Sequence record: MT939241.1
DNA length: 64,000 bases
Source of the DNA: Enterococcus phage 9183
Strand: one strand, 5' to 3'
The position numbers and the translations under genes were made by a program. Of the stretch, positions 5,703 through 58,738 are shown one piece after another. Each line of letters opens with the position of its first letter. Position 1 is the first letter of the stretch. Under the pieces are notes generated by a model that saw only the letters and a program-made list of their open reading frames with translations, ran no database searches and was not told where the DNA came from.

Positions 5703-6221
5703 ATGAGTATTAATATTGTTTTAGATGGTCCTAAAGCATGTGGAAAAAGCACAATTGCGAATATGATCATTAATGAATTAGGAAATTGGAAATATATTCA
5801 TTCGGATTCACAAACGAAAAATGATTTAGAATATCATTTAGATCTTTTAAATCAAGGTGAAAATACGGTATTAGATCGTTTTTCATTCGGTGAGGTAATT
5901 TATTCGAAAGTATATGATCGTAAATGTAAACTTACGCCTAGTGAATTTTTGAAGACAGTGACTAGAGAAAATACGATTTACGTCGTTCTTTACTCAAGCT
6001 CAATGATTCTTTTAGAAGAAAGAATAGTAAGGCGTGGAAGAAAAACTGAAGACGAAGAATTAAGTCTCGTTTCGTCTAGCAACAGTTTATTCATTAGGTG
6101 TGCTACTTGGATGCAAGATCAACCTTACTCAGTAAGAAAAAGATACTTAACTTTTGACGTAGCAAAATACACCGCTGAAGAAATCTTTGAAAAGATAAAA
6201 GAAAAAATGGAGGAATTTTAA
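5703..6221 (+). CDS. deoxynucleoside monophosphate kinase (P-loop NMP kinase)
   Basis: Walker A motif GPKACGKST. 172 aa. Sits in the nucleotide-metabolism cluster. Confidence 0.55.
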   Translation: MSINIVLDGPKACGKSTIANMIINELGNWKYIHSDSQTKNDLEYHLDLLNQGENTVLDRFSFGEVIYSKVYDRKCKLTPSEFLKTVTRENTIYVVLYSSSMILLEERIVRRGRKTEDEELSLVSSSNSLFIRCATWMQDQPYSVRKRYLTFDVAKYTAEEIFEKIKEKMEEF

Positions 6222-7055
6222 ATGCAATCATTTGATAATTTAAATGCAGCTTGGGCATGGTTCGCAACAAAAGCTTTAACAGGAAAAAGAGTTGCGGGCA
6301 CAACCGAATTAAATAATGTATCTTTCACGCTTGAAAATATTAATGAAAATTTACTTACAATTCGTGAAAACTTTTCATTATCATATTATTTAGGAGAAGG
6401 AATTTGGTATGGAGCAGGCTCAAATTCTATGGAGTTCATTTCAAGATTTGGAAAAATTTGGGAAAAATTAAGTGATGATGGTGTTACAAATGAAAGTGCC
6501 TATGGATATATTCTAAAGAAAAAATATGGCTTTGATCAAATTGAAAAAATGGTTGAACTTTTAAGTAAAGATCCAAACAGTCGTCGCGCAGTGATGAACA
6601 TTAATTTCGCTCGTAAAAATGTAATTGAAACGAATGATGAACAATGCACTATTGCTTTGCAGCTTTTGCTTCGTGATGGTGAGTTAAATATGACAGGAAT
6701 TATGCGTTCAAATGATTTATGGACGGGAACACCGTATGATATTTTCTACTTCACGGAAATTCAAAAATATATCGCTAATCGTTTAGGTGTTCAATATGGA
6801 ACTTATACTCATTTCGTTACTTCATTGCATATTTATGATCGTGATAAAACGAAAGTAAGTAAATCGATTTTGAATTACTTAAATGATGAAAAAGTTGATG
6901 TTACTATTGATGGTCAACTTTTATTAGAAAGCGCACCTGACTTATATAAGATAATAGGTAAGATTATAGATCCTAAAGAAGCCAAGAAAAAAGCAATTGA
7001 ATTAGCAAAAATAAGAAATATCGTTGGAGGTAAAGACATTGAAAATCAAAATTAA
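6222..7055 (+). CDS. thymidylate-synthase-family pyrimidine C5 hydroxymethylase/methylase, likely dCMP-specific
   Basis: ThyA core aligns well by eye: DPNSRRAV, catalytic Cys in EQCTIALQLLL, MRSNDLWTGTPYDIFYF against E. coli QRSCDVFLGLPFNIASY, and HIYDRD against HLYSNH. The Asn177-equivalent is Asp (PYD versus PFN). Confidence 0.6.
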   Translation: MQSFDNLNAAWAWFATKALTGKRVAGTTELNNVSFTLENINENLLTIRENFSLSYYLGEGIWYGAGSNSMEFISRFGKIWEKLSDDGVTNESAYGYILKKKYGFDQIEKMVELLSKDPNSRRAVMNINFARKNVIETNDEQCTIALQLLLRDGELNMTGIMRSNDLWTGTPYDIFYFTEIQKYIANRLGVQYGTYTHFVTSLHIYDRDKTKVSKSILNYLNDEKVDVTIDGQLLLESAPDLYKIIGKIIDPKEAKKKAIELAKIRNIVGGKDIENQN

Positions 7056-7455
7056 AATGTTTGAGGATGATCCATTATTTAAACCAAAAAGAGCACATTA
7101 CAATGATGCAGGAGCTGATGTTCGATCAACTGTAGATGCTGTTATCTTACCAGGTCAAACTGTAAAAATTCCATTAGGATTTGGATTGGAATTACCCGAT
7201 GGTTACATGGGTGTAATGATGAGTCGATCAGGCCTCGCCTCTAAAGGTCTTGTTTCACAAAATGCTCCTGTTGACTCAGGTTATAAAGGTCAAGTACACG
7301 CTATCTTGACAAATACGACAAATTTATCTATTACAATCGATCGCTTTACTCGTGTTGCACAATTAGTGATCGTTCCAATTATGGTGGCAGATTTCGTTGA
7401 AGAATTTGGAAATGAAAGAACTTCCGACGGTTTTGGAAGCACAGGTATTAAATAA
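7037..7455 (+). CDS. dUTPase-family dNTP pyrophosphatase (trimeric dUTPase fold; dUTP and/or dCTP specific)
   Basis: Motifs AGADV, VDSGYKGQV and the C-terminal RTSDGFGSTG. TTG start at 7037 after GGAGGT is preferred over the track ATG at 7024. Confidence 0.7.
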
Positions 7456-7799
7456 TGATACTTGTCTTTGATTTAGATGGAACGATTTGTGAGGAGAAAC
7501 CGAAAGGTACTCCTTACGCCGCTTATGCGGACGTTCAACCAAAAAGAAAAATGATTGAAAAGATTAAAGAATATCATGATGCAGGTCATAAAATCATTAT
7601 TTATACTGCTCGTCATATGGTTTCTACCAATGGTGATTTAAAAATGATTGAGGAACGTGTTGGTAAAATCACTCGCAATTGGTTAGAAAAAAATAATGTT
7701 CCTTATGATGAATTAATTTTTGGTAAACCATATGGGGATATGTACATTGATGATAAAGCAATGCAGCTTGATCAATTCTTATTGGAGGAAATGCTATGA
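7455..7799 (+). CDS. small HAD-superfamily phosphatase (capless)
   Basis: DLDGTI (motif I), YTAR (motif II), GDMYIDDK (motif IV). 114 aa. Confidence 0.5.
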   Translation: MILVFDLDGTICEEKPKGTPYAAYADVQPKRKMIEKIKEYHDAGHKIIIYTARHMVSTNGDLKMIEERVGKITRNWLEKNNVPYDELIFGKPYGDMYIDDKAMQLDQFLLEEML

Positions 7800-9430
7800 T
7801 TAATAATATCGCTCTTATTCCTGCAGCAGGTAGAGGAACGCGGATGAAATCAGTCACGGATAAATATCCAAAGGCAATGATTCCACATTTAGGAAAACCA
7901 ATTATAGGCCACCAAATTGAATATTTGATAAAAGAAGGCTTTGATAAGGTAGTTATCGTTGTAGGTTATCAGAAAGACATTCTAATGCAATACGTGATTA
8001 AAAATTATGCGGATAAAATTCGTATTTTATTCGCAAATCAAGACGAATTAGATGGACTTGCGACAGCGATTCTTGAAGGAATCAACGCCTTAAACGAAAA
8101 AGACTTATTATTATCAAATCTCACAATTATTCTAGGAGACATTTTACCTCAAGAAGAAATGCCTTATTTTAATGGAGAAAGTTTCATTTGCTATAAAGAG
8201 GTTGATGACTGGCAACGTTGGTGCATGGTTAAAGAACTTTATTCAGGTCGTTTATGTTTTTATGATAAACCAATTGATAAGCCAAACACCAATAAAGCTT
8301 TAATGGGAATTTACATGTTTAATGATATCGATCTATTAAAAGAAAGCATCGAACATATCAAAGAAAAAAATATTCGAATCAATGGGGAATTTCAATTAAG
8401 CTCTGCAATGAATATCTATAATGAACATGTTAACATTAATTTGAAAAAATATGAAAAATTCATTGACTTCGGTCAAGCTGAAGACATTAGTGCCGCAAGA
8501 AAAAATGCTGCTCGTTACTTCAATGATATTTTAATTGAAGATGAGGTAGTAACAAAAAGAAGCACTGATAAAAGTAAAATGTACGACGAATCAATGTGGT
8601 ACCAATTAGCCAAAAATTACTTAGGTGATTATTTACCTGAATGTTATGGCATGACAAAAGAAAATGATGGATATAAAATGAGTCGCATTAAGCTGCCTTC
8701 TCTCCAAGAACAATTCGTCTTTGGAACATTAAGTAGAGTAGAAGCTTACCAATTGATGATTGACTTAATGAATTATTTCAAAGACACGAAAAAATACGGG
8801 ACTAAGCGCCCAAATTTGATTAAAGCAAATCAAGATATGTTTATTAATAAGACAAGAGAACGTATTGAAAAAATCAAAAATATGTTCGATGAAAAATATT
8901 ATGTAATTAATGGAGAAATTAAAGAAAATCCAATTTTTATATTTGAAGAAAAAATCGTTCCTCGTTTAGAGGAAATTATTGCCGATGATAATTATGCCGC
9001 AATGATTCACGGTGATTTATTCTTTGGAAATATGATGTACGATCCAAAAGGAGAAGATGGGCAACGTTTGAAAATCATTGATCCTCGTGGCAAATATGGA
9101 GAAGATAATCGTCTTATGGGTGATATGCGATATGATTATGCTAAATTAAATCATTCAATTTCAGGATATTATGATTTCATTATTAATGGGCTTTATTATT
9201 TGGAAGATAATGGAACTGTGATCAATTATAACTTTTACGATAGTGAAAAGCAGGTAGAAGTACAAGGTTTATTTGAAGATTTACTTTCATTGTCTCATAT
9301 GAAAAAGAAAGATATTGATATGATCACGGGTATCTTGTTCCTATCGATGATTCCGCTTCACAAAGAGAATAAAAATAATCAAATCATTCAATTTGCACAA
9401 GCAATTAAATTTTTAGAATTAGGAGCATGA
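7796..9430 (+). CDS. bifunctional protein: N-terminal sugar/phospho-alcohol nucleotidyltransferase fused to C-terminal APH/choline-kinase-like kinase
   Basis: N-terminus IPAAGRGTRM...KAMIP...GKPII matches the NTP-transferase signature. The C-terminus has the Brenner motif HGDLFFGNMMYD followed by IIDPRGKYGED. 544 aa. Confidence 0.55.
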   Translation: MINNIALIPAAGRGTRMKSVTDKYPKAMIPHLGKPIIGHQIEYLIKEGFDKVVIVVGYQKDILMQYVIKNYADKIRILFANQDELDGLATAILEGINALNEKDLLLSNLTIILGDILPQEEMPYFNGESFICYKEVDDWQRWCMVKELYSGRLCFYDKPIDKPNTNKALMGIYMFNDIDLLKESIEHIKEKNIRINGEFQLSSAMNIYNEHVNINLKKYEKFIDFGQAEDISAARKNAARYFNDILIEDEVVTKRSTDKSKMYDESMWYQLAKNYLGDYLPECYGMTKENDGYKMSRIKLPSLQEQFVFGTLSRVEAYQLMIDLMNYFKDTKKYGTKRPNLIKANQDMFINKTRERIEKIKNMFDEKYYVINGEIKENPIFIFEEKIVPRLEEIIADDNYAAMIHGDLFFGNMMYDPKGEDGQRLKIIDPRGKYGEDNRLMGDMRYDYAKLNHSISGYYDFIINGLYYLEDNGTVINYNFYDSEKQVEVQGLFEDLLSLSHMKKKDIDMITGILFLSMIPLHKENKNNQIIQFAQAIKFLELGA

Positions 9431-9434
9431 TAAA

Positions 9435-10655
9435 ATGGGTAAAACAATCGTTTTTGGAAAATTAGGAAGAACTATACGATTCAACCGCAAGAATTGGAAA
9501 TCAGGTGCTGGCAATAATGAGCCGGCAACATTGCTTTCAGCTTTAGCTAATGCAAATCCTCAAAATAAATATATTATCATTGGTAGAAGTGATTTCTCTC
9601 GTTGTGATGAAGAAACGATAAACTATTGGTTTAAATATGATAATGTTGAAGATGCTTGGGCAGACTATGACAAGAAAAAACATGATCTTTATAATTTCCT
9701 TTATGAAAAATATAAAGATACTCATATTGATTATGGGATTATCAATGGAGGTATCACAGGTAACACAAACTCTCCAGGCTGCTTTATTAAATATGATAAA
9801 GATGGAAATTCAACTGGAGAAAAATTACGTGTGTTAGATGCTATGGCTATTTACGTTGGCCCAATCATTTGCTTATTTAACAAACGAAAAATAAAATGGG
9901 TAAACTTCCATGCAGATGCTCGTCAGTTTCCTATTAAAGGTAAAGATGTTTTCCAACAGCCTGAACTTACAATTGGGACAAGAAATATTGATCGAGTGAA
10001 AATGACATATAAAGATTATGATGATCAAACTGATATTCCTAGAGAAATGAGTATGAGATATGGAATGACTGAAGCTCTCCTTTTACTTGACCCTGAATAT
10101 AAAGATTTTCCTAAAGTTGAAAAAGATATTAAAGTAGGATTCTTCTTCCATAATTATGAAAAAATCAAAAATCGTACTCATGAATTACTTAATTATATTG
10201 ATCAGTTTGGAGAAGATGAAATTTCAGTTTATGGCAAATGGAAAGGTTTTGAGGATCAACCTAAATTTAAAGGTGAATGTACCTTTGATGAGATGCAAGA
10301 AATTTTACCTCGGATCAAATATACACTTTGCTATCCTATCGTTAAAGGTGATATTAGTGCAAAATGGATTGAAGCTGTAAGAGCTGGTATTATTCCTTTC
10401 TTCGATGAAAAATATGATGAAAATCGTTTGCTCGTTGATATTCACAACGTTCCTTCATTCTTATATGTATCTTCACCTGAAGATATGAAAGAAAAAATTA
10501 ACCTGCTTGAAAAAGATCCTCACATTTACAAATCTATTCTTGATTTATTGACTGATCGTTTAGAATATCTTAAAGAAAATGTTCTTTCAATTTATGAATG
10601 TGAAATTGAGGATGCCATTGAAGGCGGCGTTGAAAGATACGATAAAATTTATTAA
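9435..10655 (+). CDS. hypothetical protein, possible GT-B-type (alpha-glucosyltransferase-like) transferase
   Basis: 406-aa ORF in the modification cluster. Only weak by-eye resemblance to GT-B DNA glucosyltransferases (KWKGF segment), so the function is uncertain. Confidence 0.3.
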   Translation: MGKTIVFGKLGRTIRFNRKNWKSGAGNNEPATLLSALANANPQNKYIIIGRSDFSRCDEETINYWFKYDNVEDAWADYDKKKHDLYNFLYEKYKDTHIDYGIINGGITGNTNSPGCFIKYDKDGNSTGEKLRVLDAMAIYVGPIICLFNKRKIKWVNFHADARQFPIKGKDVFQQPELTIGTRNIDRVKMTYKDYDDQTDIPREMSMRYGMTEALLLLDPEYKDFPKVEKDIKVGFFFHNYEKIKNRTHELLNYIDQFGEDEISVYGKWKGFEDQPKFKGECTFDEMQEILPRIKYTLCYPIVKGDISAKWIEAVRAGIIPFFDEKYDENRLLVDIHNVPSFLYVSSPEDMKEKINLLEKDPHIYKSILDLLTDRLEYLKENVLSIYECEIEDAIEGGVERYDKIY

Positions 10656-10741: not shown

Positions 10742-11266
10742 ATGAGTACGACTTTTAAAGTTAAAAAACACGAAGATAATATCATTCACCTTTATTCTGA
10801 TGGAGGCTGTCGTTCAACGGCAAAGAAAGGTGAAAAAATTAAAGACACCGATAAATGTGCTTACGCTTTCTTCTTAAAACAAGGAGGACACGAAAAACTT
10901 GATGGATTTGCTTCTTATGGAAAGACAAATAATAATCAAGAAATAATGGGATTGCTCATGGGGCTAAGAGCAATTAAACGTCCTGAGTTTCCAGTTATTG
11001 CTTATCTTGATAGCGCTTACGTTGTTAACTGTCTTCAAGCAGGTTGGTGGCGTAAGTGGGAGCAAAATGGGTGGACGAAGAAAGGTGGCCTTGCAAATGC
11101 TGAAGAATGGAAAGCATTAATTAAAGAACTTAAAAGATTTCCATTTTTCTCCATTGAAAAGGTGAAAGGTCATTCAGGTAATGCTGATTATAATGATCTA
11201 GTCGACAAGCATTTAAACAAATTAATGGATGAACTTGAGGAGAAAGGTAAAGGTAATGTATTATGA
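10742..11266 (+). CDS. ribonuclease H (RNase HI-like)
   Basis: YSDGGCRS...DK.AYAF ... EIMGLLMGLRA matches RNase H catalytic architecture. 174 aa. Confidence 0.65.
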   Translation: MSTTFKVKKHEDNIIHLYSDGGCRSTAKKGEKIKDTDKCAYAFFLKQGGHEKLDGFASYGKTNNNQEIMGLLMGLRAIKRPEFPVIAYLDSAYVVNCLQAGWWRKWEQNGWTKKGGLANAEEWKALIKELKRFPFFSIEKVKGHSGNADYNDLVDKHLNKLMDELEEKGKGNVL

Positions 11267-12234
11267 TTTATTTTGGTAAAACTCGTATTAACCTATTTTC
11301 ATATGACGCGTCAGCAAAGCCAAGATTAGATACTGAAGAAATATTAAAAGGAATGGGTTTCACACCTTTAATTGTGTCAGCTTTTGAAGAGGTAAAAGAT
11401 GTAAAATTACGCGTCGAACAAGAACTGGCAAACATAAAAGAAAATGATATCATAATCGTTCAATATCCTTCTTTTAGTTGGAGAGAATACGAAATAGCTT
11501 TTAATGAACAAGCACATAAACAAGGAGCTAAAGTGTTTGCTATCGTTCACGATCTGGAGACATTAAGATGGCCTGGTGATACGTCAGACTTTGAAGTATT
11601 AAATACTTTTGATGCTATTTCATTGCCTTCATATAAAGCTGCAAGCTTTTTAATGAAGAAAGGTTTGAAAACGCCTTTTTACTTCCAGTTCTTTTGGGAT
11701 TATTTATGTGAAAACAATGGGCAAATGTTAGACTTGAATGCCGATATTGTGTATGCAGGAAATATCATTGAACGTAAAACAGAATTTCTTAATGATGTAA
11801 AATTTCCAATACGCCTTTATGGTGATAATATCGAAAATAGAACATTTAGGGAAAATATCACATATGAAGGTAGACGAACGAATGAGGAATTAGTTTTGGA
11901 AATAGGAGGAAATATTGGCTTATCATGGGATAGTAATAATTATTTAGAATATGCAAAATATAATCTTTCATATAAGCCTGCTATGTATTTAGCCGCAAAC
12001 TGTCCTATTATCGTTCATAATAAAACGAACATAGCAAGAATAGTTGAAGCTTATAATTTAGGTAAAGTTATAGGTGATTTAAAATATGATACAGTTTTAA
12101 AAGCTGTCGTTGATATTAAGAAAGAACGTGAAAGATATGCAGAAGCAACTCTTGCATTTGGACAAAATTTAAGAGATGGAAGATGTTTGAAAAATTTAAT
12201 AGAAAGGATGTTGACTTCACAAGATGCATATTGA
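11263..12234 (+). CDS. GT-B fold glycosyltransferase, T4 beta-glucosyltransferase (Bgt)-like
   Basis: By-eye similarity to the T4 Bgt C-domain: ADIVYAGNIIERKTEFLNDVKFPIRLYGDN against LDVIYGGSFRSGQRESKMVEFLFDTGLNIEFFGN. The N-domain has a comparable layout. Confidence 0.45.
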   Translation: MIYFGKTRINLFSYDASAKPRLDTEEILKGMGFTPLIVSAFEEVKDVKLRVEQELANIKENDIIIVQYPSFSWREYEIAFNEQAHKQGAKVFAIVHDLETLRWPGDTSDFEVLNTFDAISLPSYKAASFLMKKGLKTPFYFQFFWDYLCENNGQMLDLNADIVYAGNIIERKTEFLNDVKFPIRLYGDNIENRTFRENITYEGRRTNEELVLEIGGNIGLSWDSNNYLEYAKYNLSYKPAMYLAANCPIIVHNKTNIARIVEAYNLGKVIGDLKYDTVLKAVVDIKKERERYAEATLAFGQNLRDGRCLKNLIERMLTSQDAY

Positions 12235-19439: not shown

Positions 19440-19661
19440 TTGATGAATTTTAGTCAAGCTTTTGATACCGTCAGTCAACGAGAAGGAACGTTTATGCGTT
19501 TGCCTCAATGGAAAGAGGACGTAAAAATTCGTGCTCAATTTCCTGATGAATACAGTAAAATGAGTCATCCTTACCTATATGTGGAATCGCGTTTTGGTAA
19601 TGTACCTTGGATTCCAACACAGGTTGAAATGTTTTCAAATAAATGGGAGGTAGGAATTTAA
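19440..19661 (+). CDS. hypothetical protein
   Basis: 73-aa ORF. Confidence 0.5.
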   Translation: MMNFSQAFDTVSQREGTFMRLPQWKEDVKIRAQFPDEYSKMSHPYLYVESRFGNVPWIPTQVEMFSNKWEVGI

Positions 19662-20404
19662 TGAGAAAATTTGAAGTAGTAAGTGCCTATAAGGACAAAG
19701 AAATTAATTTGCCAATGCGAGCAACTCCTCATTCAGCAGGTTATGATTTTGAGGCTGCAGAAGATATTGAAATCCCTTCATTCTTCGTGGGTGTTCGTCA
19801 GTTGATGACATATATTGAGGATAGAATCGATCAATCAAATAATCATCCAATGGATGAACGAACATACGAAAGGTTGATGAGATATGAAGAAGAAACTGAT
19901 GAAATATCTAGACACCTATCTGAATATGAACAGCTTCCTGTTGCATATGTTAAAGAGCTTTTATCGTTAATCGATGATATTCTCGACGATGATGAAACTT
20001 CATGCTTAGAAGCTGTTGAAGATTTCCGTAAAAAATTAAAACCTACGTTAGTTCCTACAGGAATTAAAGCTTGCATGCATAAAGATGAATTTTTAGGATT
20101 ATACAATCGTTCTTCAAATCCATTAAAACGAATGCTCGTATTGGCAAATGGCGTTGGAGTTATTGATAGTGACTATTACGATAATGAAGACAACGAAGGC
20201 CATATCATGTTCCAATTTATTAATCTAGGATTCCTTCCTGTAAAGATTAAGAAAGGCGAACGAATTGGGCAAGGTATCTTCCAAAAATTCTTAACAGTTG
20301 AGACAGTTGAAGAAACGCGTGAAGATACAAGAAGCGGTGGTTTTGGTTCAACAGGTGTTGACGACACTATTCCTGGAGAAATGTTTGAAAAAGAGGTGCT
20401 TTAA
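19661..20404 (+). CDS. dUTPase-family dNTP pyrophosphatase with a roughly 100-aa insertion between motifs 1 and 3
   Basis: Motifs SAGYDF, VIDSDYYDNEDNEGHI, RIGQGI and RSGGFGSTG. ATG at 19661 after GGGAGG is preferred over the track start at 19643. Confidence 0.6.
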   Translation: MRKFEVVSAYKDKEINLPMRATPHSAGYDFEAAEDIEIPSFFVGVRQLMTYIEDRIDQSNNHPMDERTYERLMRYEEETDEISRHLSEYEQLPVAYVKELLSLIDDILDDDETSCLEAVEDFRKKLKPTLVPTGIKACMHKDEFLGLYNRSSNPLKRMLVLANGVGVIDSDYYDNEDNEGHIMFQFINLGFLPVKIKKGERIGQGIFQKFLTVETVEETREDTRSGGFGSTGVDDTIPGEMFEKEVL

Positions 20405-30802: not shown

Positions 30803-30840
30803 AATAAAAAAAAAATGAGGAGCTAAATGCTCCTCTTTTA
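30803..30840. terminator. bidirectional terminator at the strand-switch (A10 - gaggagctaaatgctcctc - T4)
   Basis: Palindromic hairpin between the convergent modules. Confidence 0.7.
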
Positions 30841-31815
30841 TATACCAAAAGCTTCAAATAGAATTTCATCGCTGCGATCCATTAGATATGATTCTGTTGT
30901 AGATACATCCTCATGATGAGCGATTAATTTCAACACTTTCAGGTCTAATGATTCTTTCCCTAATTCTTTCAACACATGATGTGTTCCATTTGAATAGTTG
31001 TCCAATGACGAATGTCGGAAACAGTGAGGATTAATGTCTAATTGAACGCCTGTTTTCTCCTCAAGAATTGTCCTAAATGTTAAACAAAATGAGTACAATG
31101 ATTCATAAGAACGAGCTCGTTTGTTTTCTCCTTTGCCCGCTACCCACAACGATTCAATATCATCTTCTCCTCGTTGATCAAACCATTTCTTTGCAATTTC
31201 ACGTGTACGATCAAAGTATAATAATTGGAATTTCTTTCCACGTTTACCAACTACTTCATTAGTCATCTTACCTTCTAAGAAACCTTTCTTATTTACCTGT
31301 AAGATTTCATTTCTCCTTGCAGCAGAATCGTATGATAATGAAAGGTAAAGAGCCATTTCATATCGTTCTTCCGCCAATAATTGATCAAGGATCACATTAA
31401 TTTGATCATCTGTTAAGAACACAATATCACGTACTTTTTCTCCTTGCACGCCCTTGATCGAACGCATTACATTTTTATCATAATCATATTCGTCCTCATC
31501 ATCTTCAGCGAATGTTAAGAGGTTACGAATTGAGCTTTGGAATCGATTAATGCGTGCTGCACTAGTCCCATTATCTTGAAGCTGTAAGAAGAAAGTTCGG
31601 AACATTCTTTTCTTTAGGTCTAATATAGATTTGTTTCCTGCATTATCATGAATCCAACAAAAGAAAGCACGAATGTCTGCCACATACTGATAAATCGTTT
31701 TCTCTGCTCGTCCTTTACTTTTAAGCTCTAGAACATAATCTTCTAAAAGCATTTTGTTTTCAGTGTTGACAGTCTCCCAAGTCTTTTCATTAAATAAGTT
31801 ATTACGTTTGCCCAT
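30838..31815 (-). CDS. tyrosine site-specific recombinase/integrase (XerC/D-like)
   Basis: C-terminal HCFRHSS (HxxR) followed by HHEDVSTTESY (nucleophile Tyr), with upstream ARR. 325 aa. Confidence 0.7.
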   Translation of the reverse strand: MGKRNNLFNEKTWETVNTENKMLLEDYVLELKSKGRAEKTIYQYVADIRAFFCWIHDNAGNKSILDLKKRMFRTFFLQLQDNGTSAARINRFQSSIRNLLTFAEDDEDEYDYDKNVMRSIKGVQGEKVRDIVFLTDDQINVILDQLLAEERYEMALYLSLSYDSAARRNEILQVNKKGFLEGKMTNEVVGKRGKKFQLLYFDRTREIAKKWFDQRGEDDIESLWVAGKGENKRARSYESLYSFCLTFRTILEEKTGVQLDINPHCFRHSSLDNYSNGTHHVLKELGKESLDLKVLKLIAHHEDVSTTESYLMDRSDEILFEAFGI

Positions 31816-58389: not shown

Positions 58390-58450
58390 ACCTCCAATTA
58401 AATAAACTTAGAAAAATTGGTTTTCTAAACAGCAATTAATCTAAGTGATA

Positions 58451-58521
58451 CAGGCTACCAAGGATTCGAACCTTGACTAATGGTTTTGGAGACCATTGTG
58501 CTACCTTAACACTTGTAACCT
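58451..58521 (-). tRNA. tRNA-Trp (anticodon CCA)
   Basis: Manual fold. T-arm CAAGG-TTCGAAT-CCTTG, anticodon stem ATGGT/ACCAT with loop CTCCAAA, and a 7-bp acceptor containing one G-U pair. Boundaries are accurate to within 1 nt. Confidence 0.55.
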
Positions 58522-58651
58522 AAGGTACTCCGACTTTCGTCGGAGAGTTTATTTATGAAAAAACTTAGTAAATAAATAAATAAAAAGAAAAAAGAAAAAG
58601 GAAGTTATGACTAGAAAAAGGTGAATACACAGGTGAGTCTTTACGACTCAA

Positions 58652-58738
58652 CGGAAGCAGTAGGACTCGAACCCACAAGCCGACCAAACGACTAACCGCT
58701 TTCAATGCGGGTGCAGTACCAATTATGCTTATGCTTCC
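58652..58738 (-). tRNA. tRNA-Ser (anticodon TGA), type II with long variable arm
   Basis: Acceptor GGAAGCA/TGCTTCC, anticodon loop ATTGAAA, long variable arm stem AGTCG/CGGCT, and T-arm GTGGG-TTCGAGT-CCTAC. Confidence 0.7.

Follow-up and report, generated by a model that had tools for sequence, protein, structure and literature searches.

The described enzymes closest to the protein studied here share the thymidylate synthase (TS) fold and differ in what they make. ThyA of Escherichia coli converts deoxyuridine monophosphate (dUMP) to deoxythymidine monophosphate (dTMP); gp42 of phage T4 (EC 2.1.2.8; PDB 1b5e, 6a9a) makes 5-hydroxymethyl-deoxycytidine monophosphate (5hm-dCMP); MilA, the cytidine monophosphate (CMP) 5-hydroxymethylase of Streptomyces rimofaciens (PDB 5b6d, 5b6e, 5jnh), serves an antibiotic pathway; the XP12 deoxycytidylate methyltransferase makes 5-methyl-dCMP (5m-dCMP); and RB69 gp48, DLP3 gp80 and the HY126 enzyme (PDB 9iqc/9iqu) use flavin and O2 to make 5-hydroxy-dCMP (5ho-dCMP). 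Published work ties these differences to a few positions, given here in E. coli numbering unless another protein is named. The exchange N177D shifts the TS substrate from dUMP to dCMP (PMC6400193, PMC5175136 and PMC13326640, our sources for the meaning of each position). An acidic residue at position 143 (Asp145 in T4), together with an S-x-Y motif, is proposed to activate a water molecule so that a hydroxymethyl and not a methyl group results (PMC6400193, PMC13326640), and T4 D145N abolishes hydroxymethylase activity (PMC6400193). D169N marks the flavin-/O2-dependent 5ho-dCMP synthases of RB69, DLP3, HY126 and other phages (PMC13326640). The preference of MilA for CMP stems from Ala176 and Lys133, and an A176S/K133R mutant switches to dCMP (PMC5175136). 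Here we analyse a gene at positions 6222-7055 of a 64,000-nucleotide (nt) stretch of Enterococcus phage 9183 (record MT939241.1; the window), and propose, with a probability of roughly 0.8, that it encodes a folate-dependent dCMP hydroxymethylase feeding the synthesis of DNA with glycosylated 5-hydroxymethylcytosine (5hmC).

The stop codon of the kinase gene upstream abuts the start of this open reading frame directly. In public records the gene appears either as a hypothetical protein or as thymidylate synthase; that of Planchet names it 'thymidylate synthase/pyrimidine hydroxymethylase'. Enterococcus phage TJE4 encodes a protein 100% identical to the gene product, and the 7 kb around the gene are 94.6% identical to Planchet, an 86 kb siphophage of the genus Denvervirus, subfamily Andrewesvirinae, that infects vancomycin-resistant Enterococcus faecium; the window phage is an Enterococcus siphophage of this genus (TJE4/Planchet). 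The gene and its immediate features are as follows.

6222-7055, + strand: TS-fold enzyme gene, 277 amino acids, ATG start; predicted dCMP hydroxymethylase (5hm-dCMP synthase)
6209-6213, + strand: ribosome-binding site GGAGG, 8 nt 5' of the ATG at 6222, by direct sequence reading
6837-7052, + strand: C-terminal helical extension, residues 206-277, with AlphaFold2 helices H206-220, H231-245, H251-264 and H271-274 at a predicted local distance difference test score (pLDDT) of ~98

The protein has the TS fold. It matches Pfam Thymidylat_synt (PF00303) at 2.1e-23 (83 bits against a cut-off of 24.3), and an AlphaFold2 model built on 73 homologues has a pLDDT of 94.8; the top Foldseek matches of this model in the PDB all have the TS fold, with MilA first (4.6e-17, TM 0.76, 292 alignment columns), T4 dCMP hydroxymethylase next (8e-13) and thymidylate synthases following. 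A sequence search of solved structures likewise returned MilA at 3.5e-28, TS at ~1e-12, the HY126 enzyme at ~3e-11 and T4 gp42 at 3e-7. ThyA and T4 gp42 lack the helical extension, which is reminiscent of the additional helical C-domain in MilA (PMC5175136); it is shorter in the phage protein, with ~70 amino acids in four helices as compared with five helices in MilA. Because the best PHROG is 5131 (5e-41), whereas that of T4 gp42 and RB69 gp48 is 160, and because identity to T4 gp42 is 24-25%, we place the protein in a MilA-like clade that is separate from T4 gp42, though probably gp42-like in function. The rank of MilA as top structural match was considered as evidence for hydroxymethylation and dropped, because RB69 gp48 and DLP3 gp80 also match MilA best.

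Active-site residues were placed with three MAFFT alignments and with HMMER alignments to solved structures, all of which agree, and their codons were read directly; the reference proteins, taken from annotated records, were E. coli ThyA, T4 gp42, SPO1 gp29, the XP12 enzyme, RB69 gp48 and a ViI-like enzyme (Serratia phage IME250).

6645-6650, + strand: catalytic Cys142 (codon 6645-6647) and Thr143, aligned with E. coli C146 and H147
6705-6716, + strand: R162-S163-N164-D165, aligned with E. coli R166-S167-C168-D169; Ser163 is the deoxyribose determinant (Ala176 in MilA)
6738-6740, + strand: Asp173 in TPYDIFYF (E. coli N177 in LPFNIASY; T4 D179; MilA D186), the cytosine-reading residue
6636-6638, + strand: Asp139 (E. 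coli L143, T4 D145), three residues before the Cys, invariant in the 73-sequence alignment
6396-6398, + strand: Glu59 (E. coli E58, T4 E60), invariant across alignments, with a role in methylene-tetrahydrofolate (methylene-THF) activation taken from PMC6400193
6459-6461, + strand: Trp80 (T4 W82), invariant in the 73 sequences, with a role in binding the para-aminobenzoic acid (PABA) ring of folate taken from PMC6400193
6495-6503, + strand: S92-A93-Y94, the water-positioning S-x-Y motif (T4 S94/Y96), invariant in the 73 sequences and aligned with T4 S-N-Y
6582-6587, + strand: Arg121-Arg122, the phosphate-binding pair from the partner subunit; Arg121 corresponds to E. coli R126, T4 R123 and MilA K133 and is of the deoxyribose type

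The catalytic set of TS is thus conserved (C142, E59, Y94, R121/R122, R162, S163, D165, H203 and Y205). Its phosphate clamp (E. coli Arg126/127 and Arg166) and 3'-OH pair (E. coli His207/Tyr209) align with the invariant residues R121/R122, R162 and H203/Y205, and Asp165 corresponds to the pterin-binding D169, which is Asn in the 5ho-dCMP synthases. An earlier note, made from the letters of the DNA, had described an Asn-to-Asp exchange at the position of N177, a retained catalytic Cys and RSxD motif and a Thr in place of the His of PCH, and had taken the enzyme to be cytosine-directed. Each of these residues is where the note had put it, Asp173 standing opposite N177 in every alignment run (with T4 gp42, SPO1 gp29, XP12 and ThyA), and a cytosine-directed enzyme, supported by the N177D state, is the best reading. 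Because Asp173 is invariant in the 73-sequence alignment, in which identity falls to ~45%, we regard it as a fixed feature of the clade and not a chance substitution; all 120 database homologues, and 78 of the 80 viral loci, carry the whole pattern (Asp, a Thr following the Cys, RSxD and Asp). The Thr is common to T4 gp42, MilA and RB69 gp48, and so marks cytosine-directed enzymes generally and not one product.

The earlier note had also held that sequence cannot separate a methyl from a hydroxymethyl product. The published signatures, here Asp139 and S92-A93-Y94, now give a usable call. Read from the MAFFT alignments, and for MilA from the HMMER structure alignment, the residues at positions 143/169/177 and the products are as follows.

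ThyA: L / D / N; dTMP
XP12 enzyme: N / D / D; 5m-dCMP
SPO1 gp29: D / D / N; 5-hydroxymethyl-dUMP (5hm-dUMP)
ViI-like enzyme (IME250): D / D / N; annotated thymidylate synthase
RB69 gp48: E / N / D; 5ho-dCMP
T4 gp42: D / D / D; 5hm-dCMP
MilA: D / D / D; 5hm-CMP
6222-7055 protein: D139 / D165 / D173; predicted 5hm-dCMP

The phage 9183 protein therefore has the residues expected of a dCMP hydroxymethylase: Asp173 for cytosine, Asp139 with S92-A93-Y94 for water, Asp165 and Trp80 for folate, and Ser163 with Arg121, which indicate a deoxyribose substrate. From this pattern we infer that the substrate is dCMP, the cofactor methylene-THF and the product 5hm-dCMP. With T4 gp42 the protein has in common the predicted substrate and product, D/D/D, the S-x-Y motif, the PABA-binding Trp, the Thr after the Cys and the Ser/Arg determinants; it differs in the low identity and separate PHROG given above and in having the C-terminal helical domain. 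In the mechanism that we propose, Cys142 would attack C6 of dCMP, Asp173 would read and protonate the N3/N4 face of cytosine, and Glu59 would activate 5,10-methylene-THF; a water molecule activated by Asp139 with S92 and Y94 would then add to the exocyclic methylene without hydride transfer, giving 5hm-dCMP and THF. The product of the upstream kinase gene (5703-6221) would carry 5hm-dCMP on towards the triphosphate for incorporation by the phage Pol III alpha, and downstream glycosyltransferases would put sugars on 5hmC in DNA, thereby protecting it from host nucleases. Like T4 gp42, the enzyme would thus feed a glucosyltransferase-type step.

Support for this model also comes from related phages, for which we searched 80 viral loci encoding relatives with the neighbour proteins of the window and with T4 proteins. 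The TS homologues of VPE25, VFW, nattely and vipetofem, all Andrewesvirinae, are 55-57% identical to the 6222-7055 protein (55% for VPE25/VFW) and carry the same residue signature. A T4-type beta-glucosyltransferase gene adjoins the TS homologue in 11 of the 80 loci (PF09198 at 2e-61 in nattely) and an alpha-glucosyltransferase gene (PF11440 at 1e-28) in one, and the TS homologues standing beside T4-type glucosyltransferase genes are 44-63% identical to the 6222-7055 protein. In Lactobacillus phage ATCCB the order is TS homologue, beta-glucosyltransferase and uridine diphosphate (UDP)-galactopyranose mutase, and in nattely and vipetofem it is kinase, TS homologue, dUTPase, beta-glucosyltransferase, RNase H, WbbI-like glycosyltransferase and thymidine kinase. 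Phage 9183 keeps the latter order, as do VPE25 and VFW, but where those phages have the canonical T4-type beta-glucosyltransferase (PF09198) after the dUTPase gene it has a phosphatase of the haloacid dehalogenase (HAD) family, a nucleotidyltransferase-kinase fusion and a rare glycosyltransferase resembling T4 beta-glucosyltransferase (BGT). The two cassettes are swapped at a fixed spot between the dUTPase and RNase H genes (7455-10655 in the window, 8292-9356 in loci L009/L010). Three further loci, L006, L014 and L097, share the 9183-type cassette; the L014 locus stops inside the fusion gene, so that the glycosyltransferase is unseen there.

The DNA of VPE25 and VFW resists bisulfite conversion, EcoRI and MspI and is cut by PvuRts1I, a pattern that Duerkop et al. 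read as glycosylated 5hmC (PMC4999554). By analogy, this behaviour lends independent, though indirect, support to a hydroxymethylase in phage 9183. Our literature searches found nothing on DNA modification or chemistry in Denvervirus, TJE4 or phage 9183, and nothing after 2017 on VPE25 and glycosylated cytosine.

The sugar module and the two glycosyltransferase genes that follow the dUTPase gene in phage 9183 are these.

7455-7799, + strand: HAD phosphatase, 114 amino acids, AfhF / RB69 gp51 type (phrog_1238, 2.4e-28)
7796-9430, + strand: fusion of 544 amino acids, with an N-terminal sugar-1-phosphate nucleotidyltransferase (Pfam NTP_transferase, 6e-18) and a C-terminal APH/EcKL-like kinase (EcKL, 1.2e-4)
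9435-10655, + strand: GT-B glycosyltransferase, 406 amino acids, predicted fold nearest T4 beta-glucosyltransferase; candidate first transferase on 5hmC DNA
11263-12234, + strand: second glycosyltransferase, 323 amino acids, WbbI-like beta-1,6-galactofuranosyltransferase family (NCBIfam PRK09814 models to 2e-31, below cut-offs)

In HY126, RB69 and DLP3, AfhF and AfhE phosphorylate arabinose-5-phosphate at C1, strip the 5-phosphate and make UDP-arabinofuranose (PMC13326640). The phage 9183 phosphatase is 35% identical to RB69 gp51 (BLASTP 3e-14), which itself matches phrog_1238 at 1.9e-42, and it matches the TIGR01689 capsule phosphatase model at 4.6e-21, below the model cut-off. The fusion shares the domain architecture of AfhE and RB69 gp53:52; it matches PHROGs 24015, 21938, 4098 and 3980, of which RB69 gp52/gp53 match 4098, 21938 and 3980, and BLASTP aligns it with RB69 gp52 at 2.7e-13 and gp53 at 2.6e-4. 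A tblastn search of the window, Planchet and loci L006, L014, L091 and L093 found no homologue of RB69 gp55, the arabinose-5-phosphate isomerase. Because that homologue was not found, and because the best PHROG of the fusion (24015) differs from RB69's best, we assign no particular sugar to the module. The family of the 9435-10655 glycosyltransferase is rare (23 clusters among 5.8 billion proteins); its AlphaFold2 model (pLDDT 91.6) has T4 BGT structures as its top five Foldseek matches in the PDB, from 9e-10. This likeness is seen in the predicted structure alone, since a BLASTP comparison of this and the 11263-12234 glycosyltransferase with T4 beta-glucosyltransferase yielded no significant match (best E 0.09); in the sequence search of solved structures, the fusion's kinase domain (residues ~250-544) and the 9435-10655 product returned only noise. 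The 11263-12234 glycosyltransferase, which probably extends the glycan, is kept in nattely and vipetofem (3e-97), and the same WbbI-like gene was noted in VPE25 by Duerkop in 2016 (PMC4999554).

The label 'phosphoheptose isomerase' that phrog_1238 bears in PHROGs and GenBank looks like a propagated misannotation, its members being small HAD phosphatases. Members lie near pyrimidine-modifying TS homologues in SPO1 (gp30.2, L004 2885-3289), RB69 (gp51, L096 9709-10095) and phage 9183; SPO1 is a 5-hydroxymethyluracil phage without a sugar, yet carries a member of this family.

On the other side of the gene, and overlapping its end, lie two genes that recur among the relatives.

5703-6221, + strand: P-loop nucleotide kinase, 172 amino acids, candidate 5hm-dCMP kinase (phrog_761 'thymidylate kinase', 1.3e-13)
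7039-7455, + strand: trimeric dUTPase-family gene overlapping the end of the TS-homologue gene by 17 nt (Pfam dUTPase PF00692, 8e-21)

The kinase, whose PHROG is also that of RB69 gp45, shows weak similarity to the Pfam families Cytidylate_kin, dNK and DNMK. Of the 80 viral loci, 36 have a homologue of it close to the TS homologue, and kinase and TS homologue are fused in at least three cases (P0044, L061, L084). In 76 of the 80, a dUTPase-family gene adjoins the TS homologue or lies close to it, often overlapping its stop codon. We propose that the 7039-7455 product is a dUTP, and possibly dCTP, pyrophosphatase that would manage the nucleotide pool. It scores 100.3 bits with NCBIfam dut (cut-off 103), and its motifs, compared with E. 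coli Dut, resemble those of an ordinary trimeric dUTPase. We considered a dCTPase identity for it; with these ordinary motifs, and because backbone atoms read the base, sequence does not decide between dUTP and dCTP. In T4, the partner dCTPase gp56 belongs to another family, Pfam dUTPase_2. A second dUTPase-family gene (19643-20404, 253 amino acids, YncF/PRK13956 type) has a long insertion between motifs, and either gene may clear dCTP, as a 5hmC phage needs.

The most serious rival is a flavin-/O2-dependent 5ho-dCMP synthase of the RB69 gp48, DLP3 gp80 and HY126 type, with sugars attached through a C5 ether; the earlier note had not considered this third product. Its appeal lies in the neighbourhood, as the cluster holds homologues of the RB69/HY126 UDP-arabinose module and, like the clusters of RB69, DLP3 and HY126, combines a phrog_761 kinase, a phrog_1238 HAD phosphatase, a nucleotidyltransferase-kinase fusion and GT-B transferases. 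The enzymes themselves likewise combine the TS fold with N177D, an acidic position 143 and a Thr following the Cys, MilA is their best fold match too, and the HY126 enzyme is among the sequence matches of the 6222-7055 protein. We nevertheless disfavour this option, because the diagnostic D169N is absent, its column holding Asp165 in all 120 homologues and 78 of the 80 loci, and because the PABA-binding Trp80 is kept. RB69 gp48 has Val in the Trp80 column and Asn in the Asp165 column, whereas the phage 9183 clade keeps Trp and Asp invariant; RB69, DLP3 and HY126 moreover encode an arabinose-5-phosphate isomerase. Close homologues pair with a canonical T4 beta-glucosyltransferase, whose known acceptor is 5hmC, and the sequence match to MilA is far stronger than that to the HY126 enzyme. 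Altogether, we consider a 5ho-dCMP synthase improbable.

An XP12-type dCMP methyltransferase, with 5-methyl-dCMP as its product, would likewise account for the TS fold, N177D and S-A-Y, all of which XP12 shares with the 6222-7055 protein. Judged against this one reference enzyme, the type is characterised by a non-acidic residue at 143 and a nearby dihydrofolate reductase (DHFR) gene, neither of which was found here. Position 143 is Asn in XP12 and Asp139 in phage 9183, and an Asp-to-Asn change at this site is what costs T4 gp42 its hydroxymethylase activity; XP12 also has Pro after the Cys. DHFR and dCMP deaminase genes lie beside the XP12 gene, which has no accompanying glycosyltransferases, whereas DHFR was found neither in the window nor in the Planchet annotation. 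A methyl group would offer the adjacent glycosyltransferases no hydroxyl, and the DNA of VPE25 resists MspI, an enzyme that cuts 5-methylcytosine DNA. We judge a methyltransferase very unlikely.

More doubtful again is an ordinary phage thymidylate synthase that turns dUMP into dTMP and tolerates the Asp. Such an enzyme would suit the database labels and the setting, since this is the sole TS-family gene that a homologue search found in the window, with a dUTPase gene adjoining it that could supply dUMP and a thymidine kinase gene near. Against it stand the exchanges of Asn177 and Leu143, which in ThyA excludes water, for Asp173 and Asp139, the replacement of His147 by Thr and of the C-terminal lid of TS by the helical domain, scores of 29-87 bits with NCBIfam TS equivalogs whose cut-offs are 108-576, and the weakness of the match to real thymidylate synthases beside that to MilA. 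Hardly credible, finally, is a MilA/BcmA-like CMP hydroxymethylase whose product would go into a small molecule or an RNA-related compound: among solved structures MilA is nearest in sequence and fold, and it shares D at 143/169/177, the Thr after the Cys and the helical C-terminal extension, but its ribose determinants Ala176 and Lys133 are absent here, Ser163 and Arg121 reproducing the state of the dCMP-switched A176S/K133R mutant, and the gene lies in a DNA-modification cluster among genes of phage replication and deoxynucleoside monophosphate metabolism, with no MilB-type N-glycosidase seen nearby.

Several points weigh against a dCMP hydroxymethylase. Identity is only 24-25% to T4 gp42 and about 27-31% to MilA, and to our knowledge no enzyme of the phrog_5131 clade has been assayed. 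The 143/169/177 code is built on few characterised enzymes, with XP12 alone representing the methylase state; D169N is validated as a predictor of 5-hydroxycytosine (5hoC), while the converse, that Asp169 speaks against 5hoC, is an assumption. The MilA match in structure does not discriminate, for the reason given above. The evidence from VPE25 consists of digests and bisulfite treatment and not of mass spectrometry, and it comes from another genus with another first glycosyltransferase. Finally, the HAD and nucleotidyltransferase-kinase module is otherwise known only in phages that arabinosylate 5hoC.

The last point bears on the sugar as well. The AfhE/AfhF-type route is known so far only for UDP-arabinofuranose in 5-hydroxycytosine phages (PMC13326640). 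As a more tentative proposal, for which the odds seem to us to fall somewhat short of even, Denvervirus phages (TJE4, Planchet, 9183) might combine a hydroxymethylase-type TS homologue with an AfhE/AfhF-type kinase/phosphatase/pyrophosphorylase route and a rare BGT-like transferase to build an undescribed 5hmC glycan. This glycan could be, for example, a pentofuranosyl-5hmC, a structure once assigned to RB69 and later revised, which the WbbI-like transferase would extend.

Three contigs elsewhere, the 35 kb phage contig L097 and the phage-like contigs L098 and L099 of ~0.5 Mb, likewise pair a D/D/D TS homologue with an HAD phosphatase and an AfhE-like fusion, and this combination may be a widespread, unrecognised branch of cytosine hypermodification. 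In L098 (558 kb) and L099 (476 kb), genes for the D/D/D TS homologue, dCMP deaminase, nucleoside deoxyribosyltransferase and the AfhE-like fusion lie within ~10 kb, and L098 also carries an HAD phosphatase and a DNA alpha-glucosyltransferase homologue; these may be cytosine hypermodification clusters in huge phages. The HAD phosphatase of L097 (7964-9004, 346 amino acids) has a C-terminal part with a GIY-YIG-looking motif, YIGKGKNLRA, and this part may be a fused or inserted homing endonuclease. The protein of Agathobaculum phage AB434P2 annotated as deoxyuridylate hydroxymethyltransferase (L090 3838-4500) has Asp at position 177 and D/D at 143/169, and is more likely directed at dCMP.

The gene sits in the replication and nucleotide-metabolism arm of the genome, with primase, a RecJ-like protein, Pol III alpha, gyrase/topoisomerase IV subunits, thymidine kinase and a guanylate-kinase-like protein encoded nearby. 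Within the window we found no homologue of DHFR, dCMP deaminase, a second TS or a gp56-type dCTPase, and none of DHFR, dCMP deaminase and a gp56-type dCTPase is annotated in the part of the Planchet genome outside the window. Also outside the window, Planchet has an annotated glycosyltransferase gene, PLANC_101 (L095 15239-16405), far from the main cluster, and genes for a nucleoside deoxyribosyltransferase and a second nucleotide kinase are annotated in its genome as well. The sign of the GC skew flips at ~30 kb and ~60 kb, in keeping with divergent transcription blocks: the + strand carries the replication genes and the - strand those for lysis and structure. Three other features of the window complete this survey.

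30838-31815, - strand: tyrosine integrase gene (Phage_integrase and SAM-like domain) in a phage described as virulent; an integrase gene is likewise mentioned in the papers on Planchet and VPE25
58450-58522, - strand: tRNA-Trp
58652-58738, - strand: tRNA-Ser

Synthesis of 5hm-dCMP by a phage TS homologue with N177D is textbook knowledge, and the downstream sugar chemistry is the more novel part: the kind of enzyme is known, and sugar-activating genes are an unusual partner for a dCMP hydroxymethylase. The clade of the 6222-7055 protein provides a test case for the 143/169/177 code beyond T4-like phages, and it points to a lineage that joins 5hmC, not 5hoC, with a phage-made sugar nucleotide. 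If the enzyme is a hydroxymethylase, these candidate therapeutic phages of Enterococcus faecium are predicted to have fully substituted, glycosylated cytosines, which would affect sequencing, cloning, sensitivity to restriction, CRISPR and type IV defence, and possibly immune DNA sensing.

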